64,000 bases of DNA from Flavobacteriia bacterium (GCA_026391005.1 JAPLEV010000053.1:9218-73217); one strand, 5' to 3'. Positions 2,703-20,144 are shown, counted from the first letter of the stretch. Made by a program: numbers and translations. The notes: generated by a model from the sequence alone, not told the origin.

Positions 2703-5700
2703 TTAAGGCATCTTTACAAAGGAGCGAACATTTAAGCCCTGACTTGTGTATATTTTGAATATATAATTACCACTTTGTAAGCTAGATGCGTCCACCTCAA
2801 GCTCAGAACCCTGCGCAATTCTAGAAAAGATTAAGCGACCCGAGGATTCAAAGACATCAATTTTTTCAATGGACGCCAAGTTAGTTTTGACCGTAACCAT
2901 TGCACTGGACGGATTTGGATATAATTCAACCATAAAATTGGAAAAGTCATCCAATCCTGCATCATCAGCAAAAGAGGTGAAATAAGCCGTGTCTGAACAA
3001 TTGGCATTCGATGCCACCATCATTACATTATAGGTACCAGGACTTGTATATAGATTGGAAGGTGTAGCTAGATTTGAAAATGTAGCGTTACCAAAATCCC
3101 AAGCATAATTTGTAGCATTAAAAGAAGTATTGCTAATGGTTGAATACGTCATGCCAACTGTGTTGCCCGTAAAAACAGCATCAACAGAATCCATCGCAGC
3201 AATTATAGGAACACGTGGACTTATACATGCATCTTTTTGAATTTCCCAATCATAAAAATAATAGTAATAAGTTGCCCCGGCCGAAGAACCGGTAATTTGA
3301 AGCATTCCAGGAATACTATATGGGTAAACGACCCCAGCACTATTTCTAACTAAATTCATCTGAGACCCCCCCATTCGGTAACCGTTTCCTGGCGGAACGT
3401 GAAAATTTAAGGCCACCCTTGAAGCACCTGCTGGAATATTCACAAAGCGCGTGTCTAATTGATTCCCTGACACATCCCATAATGTAATGGTTCGATCTCC
3501 TGCTCCAGTAGCACTTACCCAAGCAGAGATGATTGTTAAGGGCTGTTGGACATTAAATGTTAAGTACTGAGTCGAAGCATTATTATGATTGGCACTTGTT
3601 CCGATAGCATTGGTAAGAGGTCCAACATAAGACAAGGGTTGAGGCTCATTATTTTCCACCCAAAAAGTATCTGTTAAGGCCAAATAGGTTGAATAGGTGT
3701 TGCCAAACCAAAGCGGTGTAGCAGAAAATTCATCCGAATACCCAATTACATTTCCGAATGCACTTGCCGTAATAGTTACTGAATCTGCTTGACAAATTGC
3801 CAAATCAGAGGCGATTGGACTAAGTGGCCTAGAAACATTGATATAACTCGGTTTAATTAAGGTGTCTTGTCCTTGTGCATTACTAGCAATTAATTGAACA
3901 GTATAAATTCCATTTTGTGTGTAAACATGTGTTGGAGATTGAATATTTGAAGTGGATCCATCACCAAAATCCCATTGCCAAGCAATCGGGCCATTCGTAG
4001 AAACATCAACGAAATTGATAACGCCGTCACAAGTGCTTTGTGTGGTTGAATAAAAATCAACAAGAGGAGGAGTGCTTGGTAAGTTACACGTCCATGTCAT
4101 TACAAAACCAGGATTATTAAGATAGGTATCACTAAAAAACTTTAAAGTCACTGCGCCATACAAGCTTGTGATGCTACCACCATTTGGCAACGTTGTTCCA
4201 GTATACTGACCAATTAAGGGACTATTAACCGAGTTTCCATTATAAATATACAAATAGTCGTAATCTAATTCCAAGTTGAAACTGCTGAAATTTAGCGTAA
4301 TCGTTGAGGCACCAGCAGGCGCAATGGTAATCGTACTTGTAATATTATCTTGGTAATTATTAGCCAACCCTCCTGGATCAAACAATGAACCGCTACAAGT
4401 GGTTTGGGTTTGATTTACCCCATTTGGATTCATGGTAATGGCACATGGTAAGTTTGGATCAACTACGATATAATTGATTAAGGTTTCTGTATCGGATCCA
4501 CACGCACCACCCGAGGCAGTCAAGCTCACTGTATATGAACCCGGATTCATATAAGTATGCGAAGGATTCAAAGCAGTCGACGTGCCACCATCACCAAAAT
4601 TCCAAAGGAAAGAGCCACTATTTGTACTTGCATTTGCAAATGTAACCAGCGCTGGAGATTGGCAATACGTTTGAAAAGTAGTGGAGAAACCAGCTGTAAC
4701 AGTATAGGAAAAGACAGCGCCAACACCTACTGCATGCCATGCATTTGTCGTGGCAATTACCTCAGGCGTACAAGGTCCGAATAAATCAATAGCAGATTGA
4801 ATGGCATAAAATCGAGCGTCTTGATGATCCACATTTGGCGTTAAATAAATAGTCAAGTTTCTAAAGGCTATTTTTGATGCATTCGTAATGCCTAAACCTG
4901 TAACGTTGAATGCATTCCCAATATCGTTGGTTCCAGTTCCACCGACAGTAAGTCTATAATACCAATGGTTCTGAACACCTGAATTCGTGTGTACTCCACC
5001 ATTGTCTTGCGCTCCTGTATAATAATTTGTTCCTAAATACGTATCGGGATCTTGAAATGCATTAGGATTACTCATGCTTCGGATTCCTAATCCGTTGGGC
5101 GTAGCATCTTCGCCCATACTCCAATTAAGAGTATTGTTATTCGCAAATGACGAAACCGAAATACCAAAAATATCTGAGAAGGATTCATTTAGCGCCCCCG
5201 ATTCGTTCGCATACACCAAACCTGCCGAATTGGAGGTAAGTCCGTGGGTAATTTCATGCCCAGTAATATCTAAATCAGTTAGCGGCGTGAAGGTAGTACC
5301 ATTGCCATCACCATAGGTCATTCGTTGACCATCCCAAAAAGCATTATTGTATCCCGTATTGTAATGCACATAACTTTTTAACATAAATCCATTTCCATCA
5401 ATACTATTTCGATTATGTACTTGATCAAAATAATCATAGGTCATTTCTGCACCCCAATGGGCATCGGTGGCATATTGATCCAACGATGCGTTTACGTTGT
5501 TCCAATTATTATCTGCATCGATAAAATCAACAGCAGCGCCATAATTTGATGTGTTGTTAAGATCAAAGGTTTGAATGCCATTTCCCCTTCCAGTTTCGCG
5601 AAGTCTAAATTGATTGTTAAAATAATCCGCCATCATGGCACGATTTCCAGAATATACCGTTACCGCATTCCCCAAGCTATCCGCTGTATGAATTTGATCG

Positions 5701-6398
5701 GTTGAATAAACCACCAACCCAGTATGCGCATCAACATAAATATTTTGTCGGCTTAAAGGTTGACTAGCATAGACATCCATTTTGTAGGCCAATTGAAATT
5801 CAGCCCGCGTATAATCTCCTTGAGTTGCCACCCAAACTAAGGACGGTTTCGGGAAATAACTTGCTTCAGCATTCTGAGTTTCATATTTCAACAAGGCTTC
5901 CTCCATTGGGACGTCCCATTTATAAGTTGAGGCATTAACAGCATTAAGAGCTGATTGAACCGCAACAGATGCTTCAATTGAAGGACTAGCACTTTGATCA
6001 ATATTCGTATAAAAAGCACCGTTAATTGAAGATAATTTACCAGCAATAAAGTGTGCTTTATAGATCCCGAACTCTACTGGATTTCCTTTATAATATTGCT
6101 GAAAGGAGAGGTGTTTTTGTTCTTGATTATCGGATTCAGCTTTCACTAATTCGAAGCTATAATCTGTAGACAAATTAAATAGTTTGCTTAAAAAACTAAC
6201 TATTTGCCCCTCATTTATTGATAGTTCAGCACTAAATTGAATGTAATCTGGCACCCTATTTTCTCCTTTCAACCTTAATACAGTTGCATATGGATACTTT
6301 TGAGAGGCTTCATTGCCATAAAAAACTTGCTGGGCAGAACATGGGGAAGTAACTTGTAATGCAGCGAATAATAAACAGAGTGTAAATGTTATTTTCAT
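2703..6398 (-). CDS. Secreted multidomain M4 (thermolysin-like) zinc metalloprotease with PKD and CUB-like domains and a T9SS C-terminal sorting domain
   Basis: Signal peptide present. HEITH (HExxH) plus GALNESFSDIFG mark the M4 catalytic domain. Three WxFGDG/PKD-like modules and a CUB-like module (YDYLYIYNG...) follow. The C terminus, ELYPNPSS...FKIYTSQG...VKMP, is typical of a T9SS CTD. Confidence 0.88.
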   Translation of the reverse strand: MKITFTLCLLFAALQVTSPCSAQQVFYGNEASQKYPYATVLRLKGENRVPDYIQFSAELSINEGQIVSFLSKLFNLSTDYSFELVKAESDNQEQKHLSFQQYYKGNPVEFGIYKAHFIAGKLSSINGAFYTNIDQSASPSIEASVAVQSALNAVNASTYKWDVPMEEALLKYETQNAEASYFPKPSLVWVATQGDYTRAEFQLAYKMDVYASQPLSRQNIYVDAHTGLVVYSTDQIHTADSLGNAVTVYSGNRAMMADYFNNQFRLRETGRGNGIQTFDLNNTSNYGAAVDFIDADNNWNNVNASLDQYATDAHWGAEMTYDYFDQVHNRNSIDGNGFMLKSYVHYNTGYNNAFWDGQRMTYGDGNGTTFTPLTDLDITGHEITHGLTSNSAGLVYANESGALNESFSDIFGISVSSFANNNTLNWSMGEDATPNGLGIRSMSNPNAFQDPDTYLGTNYYTGAQDNGGVHTNSGVQNHWYYRLTVGGTGTNDIGNAFNVTGLGITNASKIAFRNLTIYLTPNVDHQDARFYAIQSAIDLFGPCTPEVIATTNAWHAVGVGAVFSYTVTAGFSTTFQTYCQSPALVTFANASTNSGSFLWNFGDGGTSTALNPSHTYMNPGSYTVSLTASGGACGSDTETLINYIVVDPNLPCAITMNPNGVNQTQTTCSGSLFDPGGLANNYQDNITSTITIAPAGASTITLNFSSFNLELDYDYLYIYNGNSVNSPLIGQYTGTTLPNGGSITSLYGAVTLKFFSDTYLNNPGFVMTWTCNLPSTPPLVDFYSTTQSTCDGVINFVDVSTNGPIAWQWDFGDGSTSNIQSPTHVYTQNGIYTVQLIASNAQGQDTLIKPSYINVSRPLSPIASDLAICQADSVTITASAFGNVIGYSDEFSATPLWFGNTYSTYLALTDTFWVENNEPQPLSYVGPLTNAIGTSANHNNASTQYLTFNVQQPLTIISAWVSATGAGDRTITLWDVSGNQLDTRFVNIPAGASRVALNFHVPPGNGYRMGGSQMNLVRNSAGVVYPYSIPGMLQITGSSAGATYYYYFYDWEIQKDACISPRVPIIAAMDSVDAVFTGNTVGMTYSTISNTSFNATNYAWDFGNATFSNLATPSNLYTSPGTYNVMMVASNANCSDTAYFTSFADDAGLDDFSNFMVELYPNPSSAMVTVKTNLASIEKIDVFESSGRLIFSRIAQGSELEVDASSLQSGNYIFKIYTSQGLNVRSFVKMP

Positions 6399-9521: not shown

Positions 9522-9595
9522 GGGGATGTAGCTCAGTTGGCTAGAGTGCTTGACTGGCAGTCAAGAGGTCGTGGGTTCGAATCCCATCTTCTCCA
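9522..9595 (+). tRNA. tRNA-Ala (anticodon GGC)
   Basis: Hand-folded cloverleaf: acceptor GGGGATG/CTTCTCC with the G3:U70 alanine identity pair, anticodon loop CTGGCAG, T-loop TTCGAAT. There is one U6-U67 mismatch in the acceptor stem. CCA is not encoded. Confidence 0.85.
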
Positions 9596-9600
9596 CATTA

Positions 9601-9630
9601 AAAACCCTGATTGTGAAATCAGGGTTTTTA
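9601..9630 (+). terminator. Intrinsic terminator after tRNA-Ala
   Basis: Perfect 12-bp stem AAAACCCTGATT / AATCAGGGTTTT with a GTGA loop and a T-rich tail. Confidence 0.75.
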
Positions 9631-9705
9631 ATTATATCGTTTGGGAAAGCATATAACGAAAGCGTTAACGACTGCTCGAAGCAACATAAAGTGAACCTAT
9701 CACCA

Positions 9706-9915
9706 TTACTCTACTTCTTCGATGTCTATGTTATAGGCATCTTCATAATCCTCATGCTCGTCTTCTAAGACCTTATCACAGTGTTGAAAAAATTCACCAC
9801 ATTCACTAAATTGTTCATCACCCTCATTATATAGTGCTAGCTCTTCTTCGCTTAATATACATGAGAAGGTTTTTACGGTAGACGTGTGTTCACACCAGGT
9901 TATTTTTGTTGGCAT
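9706..9915 (-). CDS. Hypothetical small, highly acidic 4-Cys protein (69 aa)
   Basis: ORF only. It has 21 Asp/Glu versus 3 Lys, and Cys at residues 8, 19, 39 and 46. It lies 60 bp downstream of the lipoprotein gene on the same strand. Confidence 0.5.
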   Translation of the reverse strand: MPTKITWCEHTSTVKTFSCILSEEELALYNEGDEQFSECGEFFQHCDKVLEDEHEDYEDAYNIDIEEVE

Positions 9916-9975: not shown

Positions 9976-10872
9976 CTATTTTATCTTATTTTTAATCACT
10001 ACGCTGTTAAAATTATCAGGACCATACCACCTTCCTTCGCTTGAAACGTAGATAAAAGGAGCCCTATAGTAACCAAAATTAGTTAACGAAGTAATGATTT
10101 TACCGCTTTTAATTAAATATTCATCCCTTGCAGGATTATATTCAAACCCTTCAGGAAGTTCATAATTACCAATATAAACTTCGTTTTCGGCAATAGGAAA
10201 AAACGTGTTTTGTTGGTTATAAAACCCAATTCGTGGTATCTTTCTCAAATTGTTGATAAAGTAATATTCTTTTAACTCCTGTTTTTCTGCAAATTCCATA
10301 AACTCCCAGAAGGAAGTTTCACCCCTTTTAAGTTTCTTTAATTCTTCGTAAAGAAATGCCGTATCGATTTTTAGTGAATTAAAAATTGCGGTGTCTATTT
10401 TATTACCATTGGATTTTTCGTTAAGGGAATAACTGCTAACCTGTCGTTTTAGATTCTCAATTTCCGTTTTTAATTTTTTATCCCACAGTAAATTAATTTT
10501 TTTATTGTAAAGATTTTCCTTCTCTGCCAAAGCATGCCCTAATTCATTCAAGGTGAATTTGGCAAATTCTCCATTACCCTGAGCATACCAACCATCATTC
10601 GATTTGTAAGCATAAAAAATACCGTCCATGGATCGAATAATAATGCGCGATGTAGTGGAATCCAGCTCCGCATGTGTTTTTAAAAAAATATATCCTTGGT
10701 CTTGCTCGACTTCCGTTGGCTCAAAATCTTTTGCTATTTGGTCATAATAATCACAAAGTAAACCCTTACAGTCAGGTTGGTTCTTATTAGAGCATGCTGA
10801 AATAATCAACACAACAACTGCAGAAATAATTGAAAAAATCACGCTATTATTCCGATTAATGAACCTTTTCAT
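9976..10872 (-). CDS. Hypothetical lipoprotein (298 aa)
   Basis: Lipoprotein signal (VVLIISAC). The central part is Lys/Glu-rich and looks like coiled coil. I recognise no family. Confidence 0.65.
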   Translation of the reverse strand: MKRFINRNNSVIFSIISAVVVLIISACSNKNQPDCKGLLCDYYDQIAKDFEPTEVEQDQGYIFLKTHAELDSTTSRIIIRSMDGIFYAYKSNDGWYAQGNGEFAKFTLNELGHALAEKENLYNKKINLLWDKKLKTEIENLKRQVSSYSLNEKSNGNKIDTAIFNSLKIDTAFLYEELKKLKRGETSFWEFMEFAEKQELKEYYFINNLRKIPRIGFYNQQNTFFPIAENEVYIGNYELPEGFEYNPARDEYLIKSGKIITSLTNFGYYRAPFIYVSSEGRWYGPDNFNSVVIKNKIK

Positions 10873-11056
10873 AGTATTTAATTTTTATTGTCAAATATAT
10901 TAAAAAAATTACCAACCCTTTTATTCAAACTAGTTTACCTAAAGGTTAAAATATTTCAAGGACACCCTAGTGTTCATCTTCCCTACTCGAAAGATAAAAC
11001 TTCCAATATCACTAAGCTTGCATGATTTTTATTATCTTTATTCAAAATTAATTATA

Positions 11057-11389
11057 ATGAAAAAGCTGATCTTAACCCTCTGGGCATTGGTATCTTTGCA
11101 TGCCTTTAGCCAAACCGTCTATTCCGTAAACTCCAAATACGACGCAGATGTTAAAGTATTCGTAGCCTCCTCTAAGTATGACGCGGATTTAGTGGTGTAC
11201 AAGTGTTCTTCTAAATACGATGCCACCGACAACAAAGGATTGTGGTTCTTTGTCTCGTCAAAATATGATGCAAAAAAGAAAATTTATTTCTGCGATAGCA
11301 AATACGATGCTGACCTCATCATCTTTTTCAGCGATAGCAAATACGATGCGCAATGGAGAAGTAATGCAAAGAAGAGTTTAATGTATTAG
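11057..11389 (+). CDS. Secreted SKYDA-repeat protein (110 aa)
   Basis: The ATG at 11057 gives a signal peptide (MKKLILTLWALVSLHAFSQ). It is followed by six SKYDA(D/T/K/Q) motifs spaced 13, 13, 16, 13 and 13 aa apart, each followed by a hydrophobic beta-like stretch. The listed ORF start at 10970 adds an implausible leader. Confidence 0.7.
   Translation: MKKLILTLWALVSLHAFSQTVYSVNSKYDADVKVFVASSKYDADLVVYKCSSKYDATDNKGLWFFVSSKYDAKKKIYFCDSKYDADLIIFFSDSKYDAQWRSNAKKSLMY
11292..11349 (+). repeat. Near-identical 19-bp DNA duplication (GCGATAGCAAATACGATGC) spaced 39 bp apart inside the SKYDA gene
   Basis: Copies at 11292-11310 and 11331-11349. The spacing equals one 13-aa protein repeat. Confidence 0.8.
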
Positions 11390-11420: not shown

Positions 11421-12221
11421 ATGGATATTGCTAAGTTGCTTGAGCGTTTTGACTCCAAAAAATTAAGGCCTTTAACTACAATAGTTATTGTTGAAGTTAT
11501 GTTGTTTTTGTTCTCAATTGAAACACTAATTGAATGGTTCAACATACATCCGTTTGTATTTTTTATATTTTTTGTAATGGCCAGTATCCTAGTTTTTAGT
11601 ATTCTTCAATACATAAAACAATCACCGGAACAAAAATCTTGGTGCAAAGCAACATTTCAATGGTTAGTTTTTGTAAGAACAACCCTGGCAATAATTATTT
11701 TTTTCTTGCTTTTTGTCCTATATGTGGTCTTTATAGTTCCGGATTATAGAGTAATCGCTATTACAGATTCCGAAGATAGACAGTTTGAAAAAAAGAAACT
11801 TATGATTCCTTTTGCCAAGCAAGGGATGCTTGACACATTGAGTGCTGAAATTCAAGCACTATTAGGGGATCAATACAGTGTTAAAATCGATAATTTTGTC
11901 TATAAAGGCAAAAACCAAAAATTAATTAAAAATTCAAGATTGATTATAGTGCCTGGCATTTTCAATAAAGAGAAAGCTGTTGAAACTTTAATGAAACTCG
12001 AAGAACGAATTGAATTTTTTATTGCCAGTGATGAAGAAATGGAAATTCCAAAATTAGCAATTTTATGGAAAAATAAAGGATGTTGGAAGAACAACAAGCT
12101 TGAAATCATTAAAATAAAAGCCCAAATAGGTTTTATGAGTGGGACTGATAATAATTCAAAAGAAATTAGTTGTTTTGCTCAACAATGGAACAAATTTAAA
12201 TTCATAATCAACTTAAAATGA
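11421..12221 (+). CDS. Hypothetical integral membrane protein (266 aa)
   Basis: Several N-terminal TM helices, then a ~150 aa soluble domain. The stop codon overlaps the next start (ATGA at 12218). Confidence 0.6.
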   Translation: MDIAKLLERFDSKKLRPLTTIVIVEVMLFLFSIETLIEWFNIHPFVFFIFFVMASILVFSILQYIKQSPEQKSWCKATFQWLVFVRTTLAIIIFFLLFVLYVVFIVPDYRVIAITDSEDRQFEKKKLMIPFAKQGMLDTLSAEIQALLGDQYSVKIDNFVYKGKNQKLIKNSRLIIVPGIFNKEKAVETLMKLEERIEFFIASDEEMEIPKLAILWKNKGCWKNNKLEIIKIKAQIGFMSGTDNNSKEISCFAQQWNKFKFIINLK

Positions 12222-12739
12222 AAAAAATGATCCGCCTTTCTTTATTATTGGTGCTTATTGCAGGGATAATTTATTACGTATGGCCACAAGAGCAATTAGT
12301 AAAAAATCAGCGCATTGATAAAATAGTGGTAAATAAAACCGATCGACAAATGATTGTATACTACAAGAATGAAGAAATTGCGCGATATACCGTTTCATTA
12401 GGCTCGAAAAAATGGCCGTCACCTAAGTGGGGACCATTCTTAAATCATGATGATGGTCCAAAAAATCGGTTTGGTGATGCGAAAACTCCAGAAGGGGAGT
12501 ATAGATTGTCACCCTCTCACGGCAAATACCAACCCGCGCTGAAACTAAATTACGAAAAAAAATACCCAGGACAGGGAGGGGGAATTTTAATACACGGCCC
12601 AAACCAAATGAATAAATTCGCAGGTAAATTCCTGCGTTGGGTTGATTGGACAGACGGCTGCATTGCACTAACGGAATCGGAAATGAAAGAAATTTACAAT
12701 GCCGTCAAGCCAAATTGTTACATTCAAATTAATCACTAA
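12218..12739 (+). CDS. L,D-transpeptidase-fold (YkuD/YafK-like) protein with N-terminal anchor
   Basis: GGILIHGP ... DWTDGCIALTESEMKEIY matches the YkuD catalytic His/Cys region in its YafK-like form. An N-terminal TM or signal segment is present. Confidence 0.75.
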   Translation: MKKMIRLSLLLVLIAGIIYYVWPQEQLVKNQRIDKIVVNKTDRQMIVYYKNEEIARYTVSLGSKKWPSPKWGPFLNHDDGPKNRFGDAKTPEGEYRLSPSHGKYQPALKLNYEKKYPGQGGGILIHGPNQMNKFAGKFLRWVDWTDGCIALTESEMKEIYNAVKPNCYIQINH

Positions 12740-12825
12740 CTCAGATTTTAATGAAACAAAAAAATTGTCTTTTGCCTTTTGTTTTCTTAAAAAATACCAC
12801 CTTGTAGCTTTAAATTGAATCATTT

Positions 12826-13770
12826 ATGAAAGCCCTTAAAATTTTCTCTGTAGTACTATTATTCATTCTTTTAACCATTCTTTCTCAAGTAGGCGGAATA
12901 ATTCTTCTGCTTTGGCTACTAATTTTTCGATATTTTAAAGCCAAACTTACCAAACCATGGGCGCGACGAACAACAAACGTATTCGGTTTTATGGCCTTTT
13001 ACATGATTTTTAATCTGTTGATTATTCCTTTCCTCGCAGGACTGGGTGGCAAAGTACGGCTACCAATGTCCAAATCGGGGAACCTAGTTCCTGTGACGTA
13101 TTGGACAGCCATCTTCATGAGAAATTATATCACGGAGGAAGGAAAAGAAAAGATGTCGAAGATAGCCGACGAATTCGCCCAAAAATACCCTGGCCTGCAA
13201 GTGAAATACATGGACTGTAATTATCCGTTTAATATACCAACGCCAACGATACCCAAAGGATATATCTCGAAGAAAGAAGTGGAAACCTTTCCACTGACTG
13301 AAGGCTTAATACCCCACATATCTCATTTTGGCAATAAAGCTGACATAGCTTTGGTATATACTGATGAAACTGGAAAACCCTCTAATTTAACCCCGACCGC
13401 GATTGGTTATGGAAGTTCGGTTGATCCATTACCAGATGAACCTGGATATGCTAACCCAAAATGTGGTTGCAAAACAAATCATCAATCTCAGAGAAAAGAC
13501 TCGAAAGGAAAAATCAATGAAGGGACACCATGTATGTGTGATAAGGAATATGTTTTATATTCATTCATGTATCACATTATTCCAATTAATAAAAGTATTA
13601 AATTGTCCAAAATCCCTTCAGCTTCACTTATTAATAGATTTTACAAATTTGATAAAGAAATAATTCTTGAAGCGCACCTAAGAAAGAGATTGGAAGTGCT
13701 ACAATATAGTTGGGGAAATCACCCATGTTCTAGCGTCCGCCACGATGACCATTTTCACGTTAAATTTTAG
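12826..13770 (+). CDS. Membrane-anchored putative LAS-family (MepA / M74-like) zinc peptidase
   Basis: N-terminal TM helices. The HISHFGNKAD stretch contains an H-x5-D motif (HFGNKAD), and the C-terminal RHDDHFHVKF supplies an H-x-H motif, as in LAS metallopeptidases. A Cys-rich insert (KCGCK...CMCD) is present. The family call is from motifs only. Confidence 0.5.
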   Translation: MKALKIFSVVLLFILLTILSQVGGIILLLWLLIFRYFKAKLTKPWARRTTNVFGFMAFYMIFNLLIIPFLAGLGGKVRLPMSKSGNLVPVTYWTAIFMRNYITEEGKEKMSKIADEFAQKYPGLQVKYMDCNYPFNIPTPTIPKGYISKKEVETFPLTEGLIPHISHFGNKADIALVYTDETGKPSNLTPTAIGYGSSVDPLPDEPGYANPKCGCKTNHQSQRKDSKGKINEGTPCMCDKEYVLYSFMYHIIPINKSIKLSKIPSASLINRFYKFDKEIILEAHLRKRLEVLQYSWGNHPCSSVRHDDHFHVKF

Positions 13771-13775
13771 TATCT

Positions 13776-14198
13776 ATGAAGCGGTTACTAATTTATATCA
13801 GTTTATTTATCGCTCCCTTTTTACTTGTTGTTTGCGTTAATGAATTAAACAGACCTTCGCAATTGAATACCATTAACCTTATGGGCAAAAAGGTAGTTTC
13901 GATTAATCCCAGTCGTTGCATGAAAGACCGTTGCACTTGGTTTTGTCACAACCACGGTTGCGGAAAAACACAAAAACCGAATCGTTGTCCTCACAAAAAA
14001 AAAAACGTCATTAATACAGGATTTGTTGCAACAATTTATTGGGGCATACTTGAATTCAATGGGATTTCCAACGGCGAAAGCAACTCTTATCAGTCGCAAT
14101 CTGTTATGAATTTAGTGATTTTATGGCCCCTGTTACTACTAGGATTGCTTATCTTCAATATTGAATTATTTCTCACCCGAAAAAAGAAAGATGACTGA
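13776..14198 (+). CDS. Hypothetical Cys-rich membrane protein (140 aa)
   Basis: N- and C-terminal TM segments flank the Cys cluster CMKDRCTWFCHNHGCGKTQKPNRCPH. The gene contains an A11 tract. Confidence 0.55.
   Translation: MKRLLIYISLFIAPFLLVVCVNELNRPSQLNTINLMGKKVVSINPSRCMKDRCTWFCHNHGCGKTQKPNRCPHKKKNVINTGFVATIYWGILEFNGISNGESNSYQSQSVMNLVILWPLLLLGLLIFNIELFLTRKKKDD
13995..14005 (+). repeat. Homopolymeric A11 tract inside a coding sequence
   Basis: CAC AAA AAA AAA AAC, encoding HKKKN. Confidence 0.9.
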
Positions 14199-14376
14199 AT
14201 TAATAAACTCCATTTACATATACTGTACTGATTTTACGATTACCTCCGCTAACTTAATTGGGATAACCTATGAAGACTTTAATGCACTCATTTTCTGTGT
14301 TATTTGGCCTCTCCTAACCATAGTAAGCTTGATTACCCTTTTTGTACAAATTTATTTAAGACATAAAAAGATTTAA
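14191..14376 (+). CDS. Hypothetical small membrane protein (61 aa)
   Basis: The ATG at 14191 overlaps the upstream stop codon (ATGACTGA). There is one clear C-terminal TM segment (FCVIWPLLTIVSLITLFV). Confidence 0.45.
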   Translation: MTELINSIYIYCTDFTITSANLIGITYEDFNALIFCVIWPLLTIVSLITLFVQIYLRHKKI

Positions 14377-14410
14377 AATCATATTATTAGCAGAATAATT
14401 AACTTTGAGG

Positions 14411-15037
14411 ATGCAAAAACTAGCAATCATCCTATTCTCAACACTTTCATTGAGCTGTTTTTCTCAGAAAAATAAAGCAGCGTTTAGCGGAGAATTACTT
14501 TACAACATTGAAAAATTAAGCCCTGCAGATTCAACACCTTCAAAGATGCTGATTTATGCAAAAGATAGTTTATTAAAGGTTATTAATTTTTCGTCTATTT
14601 TGGGCAAACAAGAGATGATTAAACACCTCAGATTAAATCGATCCTATGTTCTTGTATCTACTACCAGGGGGAATTTCGCAATTAAAAACGACTTAAATAC
14701 TGATAAAGATACTGTTGAAACATATACCTTCAAAAAGAAATTTGGTAGAACAAAAATTGCGGGAATTAGAGCGAAAAGAATTTTAGTAACATTAACGGGT
14801 ATTGAAAAAAAATTTATTTTTTATTATCACCCTAAAATAAATGCGAAATACGGAAGTGCCTATCAAAACCTTCCAGGCTTATTGCTCGAATACTATGTGG
14901 TCAATGAAAATGGCCTCATAAAATATACGCTTGAAAATATAAAACATAGTGATGTACCTTTGGGAATTTTTATGATTCCTACCGACTACAAAAAAGTCAG
15001 CCTTGAAGAATTTATTCAAGAAGTCTCTGCGCAATAA
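14411..15037 (+). CDS. GLPGLI-family-like secreted protein
   Basis: Signal peptide (MQKLAIILFSTLSLSCFSQ). The motif NLPGLLLEYY resembles the GLPGLI signature of this Bacteroidota paralogous family. The listed start at 14405 is a TTG codon. Confidence 0.55.
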   Translation: MQKLAIILFSTLSLSCFSQKNKAAFSGELLYNIEKLSPADSTPSKMLIYAKDSLLKVINFSSILGKQEMIKHLRLNRSYVLVSTTRGNFAIKNDLNTDKDTVETYTFKKKFGRTKIAGIRAKRILVTLTGIEKKFIFYYHPKINAKYGSAYQNLPGLLLEYYVVNENGLIKYTLENIKHSDVPLGIFMIPTDYKKVSLEEFIQEVSAQ

Positions 15038-17723: not shown

Positions 17724-20144
17724 ATGAAACCAATCTTCTGCTTTCTTTTTACATTGCTTCTTTTGGAGGCGAATTCACAAACGTCCTTCTCCCCTGAAAA
17801 TATACTAGGATATAAAATTGGTACGCAATTCACACGACATGATAGAGTAGTCAACTACTTTGAAAAACTCCAAAGTGCTTTTCCTAAACAAGTAAGAATT
17901 GATCCATACGGTCAAACCAATGAAAAAAGAAATTTATTCCTCACTATTATAGCATCAGAGGAAAATTTTAAGCGAATCGAAGAAATTCGAATGAATCACC
18001 TAAAGAATGACCCTTCAGAAAATGTTGCCATTGTATGGCTTAGTTATAATGTACATGGCAATGAAAGCTCCGGAACAGAAGCAGCTATGCAAACGGCTTA
18101 TGAATTACTAACGCAACAAAAAGAGCTGCTGAAAAATACCATCGTTATCATTGATCCGTGCTTAAATCCAGATGGAAGAGAACGTTACGTTAATTTTTTC
18201 TACCAATATAGCGCAAATCCAGTGAACGTGAGTCGCATAAGTGCTGACCATAATGAACCTTGGCCAGGCGGAAGAGCAAATCATTATTTATTTGATTTAA
18301 ATAGAGATTGGGCGTGGCTAACACAAATAGAATCTAAACAGCGGGTAAAGTCCTATAACCGATGGTTGCCACACGTTCATGTAGATTTTCATGAACAATC
18401 AATTAACGAACCGTATTATTTTCCACCAGCGGCAGAACCCTATCACGAAGTGATAACAAAATGGCAACGAGATTTTCAAAAAGAAATAGGAAAAAATCAC
18501 GCAAAGTATTTTGATAAAGCTGGCTGGTTGTATTTTTCAAAAGAAATCTTTGACCTACTCTACCCTAGTTATGGCGATACCTACCCCACCTATAATGGAG
18601 CCATCGGAATGACCTATGAACAAGGTGGTAGCGGAAGATCAGGACTTGCAGTTTTGACAAACACAGGCGATACATTAACACTTAGTGACCGTGTCGCGCA
18701 CCACGTAATGACCGGAATCTCTACCGTTGAAGTGAGTTCAGAAAAATGTAAAAAACTTATTGATGAATACCAACAATTTGCAACAAAGAAAAAATTCACC
18801 TACCAAAGCTACCTTCTTGATGGAAATGCACCGAATTTAGGAGCCTTATTAAAATTAATGGATCAACACGAAATTAGCTATTCGAATGCGCTACCAAATA
18901 ATACGGTTAAAGGATTTGATTATTTCACATCGAAAGAAAGCACCTATAAAACAAAAGAAGGGGATGTGATCATTTCCACCAATCAAATAAAAGGGACGTT
19001 CATTAATGTCTTATTTGAACCCAAAACAGAATTATCCGATTCCTTAACCTACGATTTAACCGCTTGGTCATTGCCCTATGCGTACGGCATCTCAACCATT
19101 GCCTTAGGCCCGGTGCTTGAAGGAAAAAAATACGCGAATAAAACGAAAGAAAACCTAGTAAACGAATCCAATTATGCCTATTTATGTAAATGGGACAATT
19201 TGAATTCTGCTAAGTTTTTGACGCGATTATTGTCAAATAACCTAGCTGTTTCTTTTAGTGAAACAAGCTTTGAAATAAATAAAATGAGCTACGAAAAAGG
19301 AACCTTGATAATTATGAGGGGACAGAACAAACAAGCCGACTTTGATAAAATCATTACTAAAATTGCTAACGAGATTGGTGTGGAATTACACTCTATTTCT
19401 TCAGGTATGGTTGATAAAGGGAATGATCTCGGCTCTTCCTTAGTGAAAAATATTCCAAGGCAAAGAATCGGCGTTTTAATTGGAGCAGAAACATCTTCCC
19501 TTTCTGCTGGCGAAATATGGCACTTCTTCGAACAAGAAGTTAAGCTGGGAGTATCCTTAATTATGGGGGAAGACATAACAAATGCACTAGCCGAGATAGA
19601 TGTTTTATTTATACCAGAAGGAGATTATTCACCTAATTTTTTAGTTAATAGTTGGGTAGACGAAGGAGGGAAATTAATTGTAATGGGAAATGCTGCAGCT
19701 TCATTTGTCAATGATGAAAATTATAGCCTCGATCTAAAAAAAGAGGAAGTAGATACTTTAATAAAAAATATCGCTTACGAAAATACAGAACGAAACGAAA
19801 TTAGCAAAACCATTCTTGGCGCAATTTATGCTTGTGATTTCGATAAGTCTAATCCGCTTTGCTTTGGCTATACTCAAGCGTATTTTACTCTCCGATTGAC
19901 GCCCGAATTGTACACGCTAACAGAAGAACAAACCCCTTTTAAGCTTAAAGCTACTGATGCATTAATTGCCGGGTTCTCTGGGGCATTTGTTAAGAACAAA
20001 CAGGCTTCGGCAATAATTAGTGGAATTGAATCGAAAGGCAAAGGTTGTGTAATTTACTTGCTCGACAATCCCCTTTTTAGAGGGTTTTGGCAAAATGGGA
20101 AATTGCAAATAATGAATGCTGTATATTTTGTTAATCAGCAGTAA
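17724..20144 (+). CDS. M14-family zinc carboxypeptidase, large secreted form
   Basis: Signal peptide present. Zn-binding block YNVHGNESSGTEA, plus FDLNRDW and VDFHE. Confidence 0.85.
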   Translation: MKPIFCFLFTLLLLEANSQTSFSPENILGYKIGTQFTRHDRVVNYFEKLQSAFPKQVRIDPYGQTNEKRNLFLTIIASEENFKRIEEIRMNHLKNDPSENVAIVWLSYNVHGNESSGTEAAMQTAYELLTQQKELLKNTIVIIDPCLNPDGRERYVNFFYQYSANPVNVSRISADHNEPWPGGRANHYLFDLNRDWAWLTQIESKQRVKSYNRWLPHVHVDFHEQSINEPYYFPPAAEPYHEVITKWQRDFQKEIGKNHAKYFDKAGWLYFSKEIFDLLYPSYGDTYPTYNGAIGMTYEQGGSGRSGLAVLTNTGDTLTLSDRVAHHVMTGISTVEVSSEKCKKLIDEYQQFATKKKFTYQSYLLDGNAPNLGALLKLMDQHEISYSNALPNNTVKGFDYFTSKESTYKTKEGDVIISTNQIKGTFINVLFEPKTELSDSLTYDLTAWSLPYAYGISTIALGPVLEGKKYANKTKENLVNESNYAYLCKWDNLNSAKFLTRLLSNNLAVSFSETSFEINKMSYEKGTLIIMRGQNKQADFDKIITKIANEIGVELHSISSGMVDKGNDLGSSLVKNIPRQRIGVLIGAETSSLSAGEIWHFFEQEVKLGVSLIMGEDITNALAEIDVLFIPEGDYSPNFLVNSWVDEGGKLIVMGNAAASFVNDENYSLDLKKEEVDTLIKNIAYENTERNEISKTILGAIYACDFDKSNPLCFGYTQAYFTLRLTPELYTLTEEQTPFKLKATDALIAGFSGAFVKNKQASAIISGIESKGKGCVIYLLDNPLFRGFWQNGKLQIMNAVYFVNQQ

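Follow-up and report, generated by a model that had tools for sequence, protein, structure and literature searches.

We analysed a cluster of five genes at positions 11421–14376 of a 64-kb stretch of DNA from a Flavobacteriia bacterium (GCA_026391005.1, JAPLEV010000053.1:9218-73217; 64,000 nucleotides, referred to below as the window). From the sequence alone, this cluster had been read as an operon that makes and breaks 3-3 cross-links of peptidoglycan, in which a YkuD-type enzyme and a LAS peptidase are accompanied by small Cys-rich membrane proteins (hereafter, the sequence-only reading). On re-reading of the window, the five open reading frames (ORFs) were all found on the + strand at the coordinates assigned there, and the motifs quoted for them, ILIHGP...DWTDGCIAL in ORF2 and HISHFGNKAD, HDDHFHV and a CGC...CMC insert in ORF3, were likewise present. 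The genes and their features are as follows.

11421–12221, + strand: ORF1, 266 amino acids (aa), overlapping ORF2 by ATGA
12218–12739, + strand: ORF2, 173 aa, predicted to be a Cys/His enzyme of YkuD fold (DpaA / L,D-carboxypeptidase branch) with an N-terminal membrane anchor
12593–12667, + strand: catalytic region of ORF2, His126 ... Cys148-Ile-Ala150, with Ala, not Arg, at Cys+2
12740–12825, no strand: intergenic gap of 87 bp between ORF2 and ORF3
12826–13770, + strand: ORF3, 314 aa, predicted membrane-anchored MepA-like (M74-related) LAS zinc metallopeptidase of an unannotated family
12826–13038, + strand: N-terminal membrane domain of ORF3, residues 1–71, carrying LTILSQVGG (family LTxxTQxGG)
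13315–13344, + strand: LAS motif 1 of ORF3, H164-I-S-H167-F-G-N-K-A-D173, matching MepA H110-A-S-H113-Q-T-G-L-D-V-D120; H167 and D173 are predicted zinc ligands
13441–13536, + strand: variable insert of ORF3, residues 206–237 with C213, C215 and C236; low-confidence model
13741–13758, + strand: LAS motif 2 of ORF3, H306-D-D-H309-F-H311, aligning with MepA H206-R-A-H209-M-H211; HxH is the predicted catalytic His plus third zinc ligand
13776–14198, + strand: ORF4, 140 aa, two predicted transmembrane helices and an outward-facing Cys/His motif, clade-restricted family
13932–13994, + strand: conserved core of ORF4, C53-T-W55-F-C57-H58-x3-C62 ... H73 (CxWxCHxxxC…H; 32 members)
14191–14376, + strand: ORF5, 61 aa, small protein with a single predicted transmembrane segment

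The junctions proved to be as previously described, namely, an ATGA overlap of ORF1 with ORF2 (12218–12221), a gap of 5 nt between ORF3 and ORF4 (13771–13775) and an 8-nt overlap of ORF4 with ORF5 (14191–14198). Since the ORF4 stop lies within ATGACTGA and the orthologues begin likewise, the ATG at 14191 is most likely the start of ORF5, giving 61 aa. Orthologues of each of the five ORFs are conserved in related genomes, where the gene order is kept, and on this comparison of sequences we judge the five to be real genes and not chance ORFs. No terminator-like hairpin was detected on the + strand inside the cluster by a terminator scan, and an Rfam scan of the window returned a tRNA only, with no riboswitch or leader. 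A scan for sigma-70 promoters gave fewer sites than shuffled sequence, the model being unsuited to Bacteroidota, and only the absence of terminators was used. The run of close-packed, co-directional genes exceeds 11421–14376, with a gene for a DUF6150 protein upstream and, downstream, a GLPGLI-like gene, ftsK, an M14 peptidase gene and more genes up to priA.

ORF3 alone matched no Pfam or NCBIfam model, and neither the single sequence nor the family profile gave anything meaningful against PDB by sequence. A word-index search yielded 71 unannotated homologues, and an exhaustive profile search extended the family to 604 representative clusters at 50% identity (198 with E < 1e-30), nearly all of which were 260–290 aa in length with full-length matches. 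Bacteroidota account for most of the family, which also extends to Alphaproteobacteria and Acidobacteriota; members from the cultured organisms Foetidibacter luteolus and Gemmobacter denitrificans carry the RefSeq label ‘hypothetical protein’; the longer members showed no informative domain fusions. Among 32 close homologues, H164, H167, D173, E282, H284, C301 and the block H306-D-D-H309-x-H311 were invariant. Among 71 diverse representatives (26–57% identity), H167, G169, D173 and H309 remained invariant, and H164, E282, H284, H306, D307, D308, H311, C238 and C301 were conserved in at least 90%. The LAS enzymes are defined by the signatures H-x(3-6)-D...H and H-x-H (PMC4087270), which are represented in ORF3 by H167-x5-D173 and H309-F-H311, respectively. 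Both extended motifs of MepA, HxSHxxGxxxD and HxxHxH, are also present, with a residue-for-residue match of H164, S166, H167, G169, D173, H306, H309 and H311 in ORF3 to H110, S112, H113, G116, D120, H206, H209 and H211 in MepA.

The predicted structure pointed in the same direction. An AlphaFold (AF2) model built from the alignment had a mean predicted local distance difference test (pLDDT) score of 80 and a predicted template-modelling (pTM) score of 0.80 and showed a LAS fold; in a Foldseek search of PDB, its top five matches were all Escherichia coli MepA (probability 1.00, approximately 250 columns, target TM-score 0.46–0.49), followed by approximately 35 N-terminal domains of Hedgehog, the other classic LAS fold. 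Alignment of the ORF3 family profile with MepA by hhalign gave E=1.7e-4 over 140 columns, superposing the family motif PHLSHxDGxKxD on GHASHQTGLDVD of MepA and RHDDHxH on QHRAHMH. The Pfam model Peptidase_M74 (PF03411) matched 36 of the 71 relatives, all below threshold (best E = 1e-5; relative P0071 scored 18.4 bits against a cut-off of 25), and the NCBIfam MepA model (PRK09429) matched 14 of them (best E = 3.8e-5), while no competing family besides M74/MepA recurred in this set. MepA cuts 4-3 as well as 3-3 cross-links, and its H113A variant is inactive; the equivalent of this essential H113 is H167 of ORF3. Because its motifs match the LAS-defining signatures and the equivalent of MepA H113 is kept, ORF3 is predicted, from sequence and model, to be a LAS peptidase remotely related to M74; as the scores stay below the curated thresholds, we do not call it an M74 member. 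The sequence-only proposal of a MepA-like LAS peptidase thus stood, with a LAS fold in the model of ORF3, with the H-x5-D and HxH motifs conserved throughout the family, and with no sign of a missing LAS fold or of unconserved zinc ligands. In the profile searches suggested with it, ORF2 scored above threshold for YkuD and ORF3 itself gave no match.

Compared with MepA (M74, LAS; PDB 1TZP/1U10), ORF3 thus shares the fold, all six His/Asp residues and a catalytic domain predicted to be periplasmic, with M74 as the sole recurrent profile. The identity in the structural alignment is only approximately 12–13%, and ORF3 adds the near-invariant E282, D307, D308, C238 and C301 together with lineage-specific inserts. 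Moreover, MepA is soluble and has a signal-peptide-like N-terminus, whereas ORF3 begins with a multi-helix membrane domain bearing LTxxTQxGG. In the AF2 model, the N-terminal helices span residues 2–20, 23–38 and 44–73. L16, T17, Q21, G23 and G24 are conserved in at least 90% of the 71 representatives, and the motif, seen among others in Gemmobacter, Foetidibacter and the proteins P0340, P0341, P0108 and P0192, recurs in Chitinophagales, Alphaproteobacteria and longer variants, so that its conservation across phyla is as strong as that of the catalytic residues. This pattern suggests that the membrane region is more than a passive anchor and may have a specific membrane-embedded function. Six Lys/Arg residues are located in the loop of residues 28–51 and, by the positive-inside rule, residues 71–314 with the catalytic domain would be on the outer side of the cytoplasmic membrane; this applies to a first hydrophobic stretch of either two helices or a single kinked one. 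In a literature search of incomplete coverage, no earlier account of a MepA-like family with a membrane anchor came to light.

The transmembrane helices and the CxC...CxC insert of ORF3 noted in the sequence-only reading were both present, but the insert is lineage-specific: its CGC...CMC form occurs in some close relatives only, and pLDDT is below 50 at residues 218–233. C238, directly after the insert, is the sole family-conserved Cys there, and we infer a periplasmic disulfide between C238 and C301. The weight formerly placed on the Cys clusters of the locus was misplaced, as most of their Cys residues are not conserved between lineages.

ORF2 matched the Pfam YkuD model (PF03734) at 70.2 bits against a cut-off of 23.4, and hydropathy indicated a single hydrophobic segment at its N-terminus. 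H126, C148 and A150 were invariant among its orthologues, including one from Terriglobia, in agreement with the YkuD Cys/His assignment in the sequence-only reading. In transpeptidase-active L,D-transpeptidases (LDTs), the second residue after the catalytic Cys is Arg, while Ala or Asn is found there in DpaA-like amidases and L,D-carboxypeptidases (Winkle et al., PMC8263019), and the YafK-type YkuD proteins are hydrolases and not cross-link formers (PMC8263019; PMC10653827). ORF2 has A150 at this position and lacks the Arg of cross-link-forming LDTs of the LdtD/LdtE/Ldtfm type. It is 27% identical to E. coli DpaA (E=1e-6), and K82 in its GPK motif aligns with DpaA K83 (Csd6 K107), the residue for binding of meso-diaminopimelic acid (mDAP) that is conserved in DpaA and the carboxypeptidases (PMC10653827). 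A profile of ORF2 orthologues searched against PDB ranked DpaA first (8IKR, 1e-11), as expected of the YafK-like protein recognized in the sequence-only reading, followed by Bd1075 (7O21, 4.5e-6), Pgp2 (6XJ6/7, 1e-5) and Csd6 (4XZZ, 0.05), with the canonical L,D-transpeptidases not significant at E > 0.25. With Ala at Cys+2, the mDAP-binding Lys retained, and DpaA and carboxypeptidases as the nearest structures, the most probable role of ORF2 is hydrolysis at the L-centre carboxyl of mDAP, and not the formation of 3-3 cross-links. ORF2 and the carboxypeptidase Pgp2 have the same GCIAL motif, and our simplest guess for the activity of ORF2 would be that of an L,D-carboxypeptidase; aromatic residues of the D-Ala pocket separate the carboxypeptidases from DpaA (PMC10653827). 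No other YkuD or LAS gene, Arg-type YkuD included, was found in the window.

Taken together, these data favour, with a probability of approximately 0.55, a module tethered to the inner membrane and facing the periplasm, in which a LAS endopeptidase and a YkuD hydrolase trim peptidoglycan. Both catalytic domains and the ORF4 motif are predicted to lie outside the cytoplasmic membrane. In the proposed mechanism, ORF3 would be a zinc-dependent LAS peptidase with H167, D173 and H311 as ligands and H309 as the catalytic His, and its conserved domain of two or three helices would hold it at the membrane; most likely, it would cut meso-DAP peptide cross-links, at D-Ala-mDAP and/or mDAP-mDAP. ORF2 most likely hydrolyses a bond on the L-centre carboxyl of mDAP, which would result either in trimming of tetrapeptides to tripeptides (L,D-carboxypeptidase) or in amidase release of an attached entity. 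Both enzymes may jointly loosen or trim stem peptides near the membrane, and the translationally coupled ORF4 and ORF5 probably associate with the enzymes or regulate them.

The gene order is shared by at least 12 related genomes. Close relatives, with ORF3 at least 48% identical, are metagenome-assembled genomes (MAGs) of Flavobacteriales, Crocinitomicaceae or ‘Bacteroidota’, which carry at the same chromosomal site an array of arginase, DUF6150, sometimes ORF1, ORF2, YkuD_2, ORF3, ORF4, ORF5, GLPGLI, FtsK and M14 genes; the full cluster is conserved only within this one Flavobacteriales/Crocinitomicaceae lineage. The YkuD_2 (PF13645) gene, encoding a membrane-anchored protein of 204–215 aa, lies between ORF2 and ORF3 in all close relatives (for example, L003:5380-5994 and L001:5347-5994). 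By tblastn and by reading of the gap sequence, no remnant of it was found in the 87-bp gap of the window. Outside this lineage, more distant ORF3 homologues (22–33% identity) occur in Cyclobacteriaceae, Chitinophagales, Saprospiraceae and Paracoccaceae. In the Terriglobia MAG MFD00032.bin.1.110 (L034:5794-7254), a full-length ORF3 homologue is followed after 27 nt by an ORF2-type YkuD gene with the motifs GDERTPEGIY...ILIHAP...DWTDGCIAV. A second copy in the same MAG (L042:4714-6781), located beside a transposase-like ORF, is truncated or degraded, with TERCIAP in place of TDGCIA. ORF2-like genes are numerous, with at least 530 loci in many phyla, of which neighbourhoods within 4 kb were taken for the best 80. 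These distributions indicate that the ORF3/ORF2 pairing probably arose at least twice but follows no general rule; the expectation that homologues would be neighbours elsewhere held for one clade and one Terriglobia MAG and not beyond these.

Among known systems, ldtD of E. coli K-12 is directly followed on the same strand by mepK, encoding an LAS-type L,D-endopeptidase, and MepK becomes essential on overproduction of LdtD. Neighbouring YkuD-fold and LAS genes that are functionally coupled are therefore not without precedent, contrary to the sequence-only reading, in which the pairing was not recognized. However, LdtD is a true transpeptidase while ORF2 belongs to the hydrolase branch, MepK is an M15 enzyme with no detectable similarity to ORF3, and both enzymes of the window have predicted membrane anchors and are encoded together with small membrane proteins. 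Because ORF2 is not of the transpeptidase type and ORF3 is unlike MepK, the likeness of the cluster to ldtD-mepK is only superficial. Descent of ORF3 as an analogue of MepK was rejected, as no relationship emerged when the family was aligned by hhalign with E. coli MepK (M15). ORF2 shares with DpaA/YafK/LdtF, an amidase of mDAP-protein linkages (8IKR), the stretch GPKxRxGDxK(S/T)PEGxY with the mDAP-binding Lys, the IHG and GC-x-A motifs and the lack of Arg, but scores far too low for the DpaA equivalog. In function, the cluster appears to be closer to the network that trims peptides in Helicobacter, Campylobacter and Bdellovibrio. In that network, the YkuD-type L,D-carboxypeptidases Csd6, Pgp2 and Bd1075 work alongside the LAS/M23 endopeptidases Csd1-3 and the M14 enzymes Csd4/Pgp1 in remodelling stem peptides. 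The ORF2 profile matches Csd6, Pgp2 and Bd1075, the logic of an LAS endopeptidase with a YkuD carboxypeptidase is the same, and ftsK in the window is closely followed by an M14 peptidase gene. The cluster differs from these systems in that ORF2 lacks an NTF2 accessory domain, its LAS partner resembles MepA and not M23, the enzymes are membrane-tethered and encoded at one locus, and no link to cell shape is known.

Several observations weigh against the trimming module proposed above. The curated M74 threshold was reached neither by ORF3 nor by its relatives, the TM-scores to MepA are moderate, and the LAS fold carries specificities as wide as endopeptidase, D,D- or L,D-carboxypeptidase and dipeptidase, so that ORF3 is named an endopeptidase by analogy only. 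The window lacks the YkuD_2 gene of its clade, leaving the local module incomplete in comparison. Apart from the Terriglobia case, no YkuD, ORF4, ORF5 or any recurrent neighbour was found beside the distant ORF3 homologues, and an ORF3-family gene was located within 4 kb at only one of the 80 best ORF2-like loci, which belongs to the clade of the window itself; the two families therefore cannot be said to cooperate as a rule, and the synteny within the clade could be simply inherited. Carried to its end, this argument makes ORF2, ORF3 and ORF4/5 separate housekeeping envelope proteins that have remained neighbours between arginase/tRNA-Ala and ftsK without forming a dedicated system. Confinement of the full cluster to close Flavobacteriales/Crocinitomicaceae genomes at one chromosomal position, as well as the variable presence of ORF1 and YkuD_2, would agree with this explanation, which we nevertheless consider unlikely, though the least so of the alternatives. 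The overlaps (ATGA and ATGACTGA) and the 5-nt gap imply co-transcription and translational coupling, no + strand terminator-like site interrupts the cluster, and the pair of ORF3-like and ORF2-like genes was assembled independently in the Terriglobia MAG.

The remaining alternatives concern the activities of the enzymes. ORF3 could be a membrane-bound carboxypeptidase in the style of VanY/LdcB, or an editor of stem peptides on lipid II or nascent strands that acts via the intramembrane motif and feeds or follows the YkuD enzyme. Membrane anchoring is typical of VanY-type D,D-carboxypeptidases. The nearly invariant E282 upstream of the HxH block, the conservation of LTxxTQxGG across phyla and the range of specificities of the LAS fold (PMC4087270) are compatible with such a role. 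It is rather improbable, because the nearest relative in fold and sequence is MepA and not the M15 carboxypeptidases, no M15 or MepK sequence match to the ORF3 family was found, and the family keeps the HxxHxH of MepA where VanXY and LdcB have Glu for HxH (PMC4087270). The original reading, in which ORF2, as an L,D-transpeptidase, forms 3-3 (mDAP-mDAP) links or attaches proteins and ORF3 breaks these links as in an LdtD-MepK-like pair, draws on the His and Cys of the YkuD domain, on the adjacency and coupling of ldtD and mepK and on the cleavage of 3-3 links by MepA-type enzymes. It is now improbable and goes unsupported, since ORF2 belongs to the hydrolase branch of YkuD by its Ala at Cys+2 and by its profile, which fits DpaA, Bd1075, Pgp2 and Csd6 but not canonical LDTs; DpaA itself showed no transpeptidase activity (PMC8263019), and the YkuD_2 protein of the clade also lacks the transpeptidase Arg (SDGCFVV), with no Arg-type YkuD gene elsewhere in the window. 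A more speculative proposal, at long odds, is that the ORF3 family represents an unrecognized integral-membrane LAS class whose LTxxTQxGG motif binds an undecaprenyl-linked precursor or the SEDS/PBP synthase, so that stem peptides would be edited or cleaved at the insertion point and not in the mature sacculus, with the Cys/His metal- or redox-sensing ORF4 and the micro-protein ORF5 as clade regulators. Finally, ORF2 might be a DpaA-like amidase that frees an outer-membrane protein bound covalently to peptidoglycan, in which case the cluster would control envelope tethering and not cross-linking. DpaA is its best structural-sequence match and, as Lpp is confined to Gammaproteobacteria, the DpaA-like proteins reported in Bacteroidetes and Acidobacteria, which have no Lpp, suggest other substrates (PMC8263019). 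This is very improbable, given that no peptidoglycan-attached protein is known or identifiable at the window, that ORF2 reached only 19.9 bits where the DpaA equivalog NF040599 requires 365, and that its GCIAL is the same as in the carboxypeptidase Pgp2.

For ORF1, hydropathy indicated three or four N-terminal transmembrane segments and a soluble domain of approximately 160 aa, and no family match was found in Pfam or NCBIfam. Its orthologues were detected only at the related loci L003/L004, L008 and L014, with a remnant at L017, and it is absent from several relatives; ORF1 is thus a variable accessory gene. ORF4 belongs to a family of approximately 164 unannotated proteins, all from the lineage of the window, and likewise gave no match in Pfam or NCBIfam. 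Two transmembrane helices flank a segment predicted to face outward, and C53, W55, C57, H58, C62 and H73 were invariant in 32 members of the family, while the outer C48 and C71 were present in some close relatives only. The sequence-only description of ORF4 as a two-transmembrane protein with a Cys cluster held, except that the spacing is CX4CX3CX4CX8C, with X8 in place of X9 at the end. The AF2 model of ORF4 was poor (pLDDT 67, pTM 0.34). A variant CX3CH haem-attachment site and a zinc knuckle were both considered for CxWxCH and not adopted, there being no family match and the family being restricted to a single lineage. ORF5, previously described as Cys-rich, contains only two Cys. It is strongly conserved in the orthologue alignment (IYCTDFTITSANLxGITYEDFNALIFCVxWP) and consists of an acidic N-terminal part of 33 aa, a transmembrane segment and a basic tail. 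ORF1, ORF4 and ORF5 may form a complex with the tethered hydrolases or regulate them, as suggested by their translational coupling to ORF3 and their location in the membrane.

The genes adjacent to the cluster include two that keep their place in the clade.

10970–11389, + strand: DUF6150 protein (PF19647, E=2.5e-39), the first gene of the cluster in most relatives
14405–15037, + strand: GLPGLI-like protein (TIGR01200, 26 bits against a cut-off of 50, sub-threshold)

The true start of the DUF6150 protein is likely the ATG near 11057, opening with the signal-peptide-like MKKLILTLWALVSLHAFSQ, and about six SKYDA(D/T/K/Q) repeats were observed in this protein. By synteny, the GLPGLI-like gene is always located between ORF5 and ftsK in the clade. 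Directly after ftsK, an 806-aa protein with an N-terminal Peptidase_M14 domain is encoded at 17724–20144 (+), a position kept in relatives; the peptidoglycan carboxypeptidases Csd4/Pgp1 are among the M14 enzymes. On the upstream side, the region is bounded by tRNA-Ala (GGC) at 9522–9632 (+), followed by a terminator-like hairpin with a 16-bp stem. Two ORFs lie on the opposite strand between the tRNA and the cluster, one of 69 aa that is very acidic and has four Cys (9706–9915, −) and a 298-aa lipoprotein-like ORF without a family match (9976–10872, −). The flanking core genes encode topoisomerase, arginyl-tRNA synthetase (ArgRS), arginase, tRNA-Ala, FtsK, PriA, sigma-70 and tryptophanyl-tRNA synthetase (TrpRS). 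An origin from a mobile element or a defence island was ruled out by these housekeeping flanks and by the uniform GC content. Further upstream, a secreted thermolysin-type M4 protease of 1231 aa (2703–6398, −) carries PKD, CUB and C-terminal sorting domains, the last of the type IX secretion system (T9SS), which places the host in Bacteroidota.

The cluster thus appears to be a variant of familiar peptidoglycan-remodelling enzymes, with two hydrolases more likely than a make/break pair. As a caution for annotation, a YkuD domain beside an LAS peptidase is no proof of such a pair if the YkuD protein falls in the DpaA/carboxypeptidase branch. The finding is of moderate practical value, as the enzymology is expected to resemble known activities. 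The most interesting element of the cluster is the ORF3 family, which is widespread and membrane-integrated and has a conserved intramembrane motif. For this unannotated family of approximately 600 clusters, a testable identity is now available, namely, that of a membrane-integrated relative of the MepA endopeptidase. The peptidoglycan endopeptidases of Bacteroidota are poorly charted, and a membrane-tethered enzyme with an intramembrane motif could help to explain how the cutting of cross-links is kept within the zone where new wall is synthesized.

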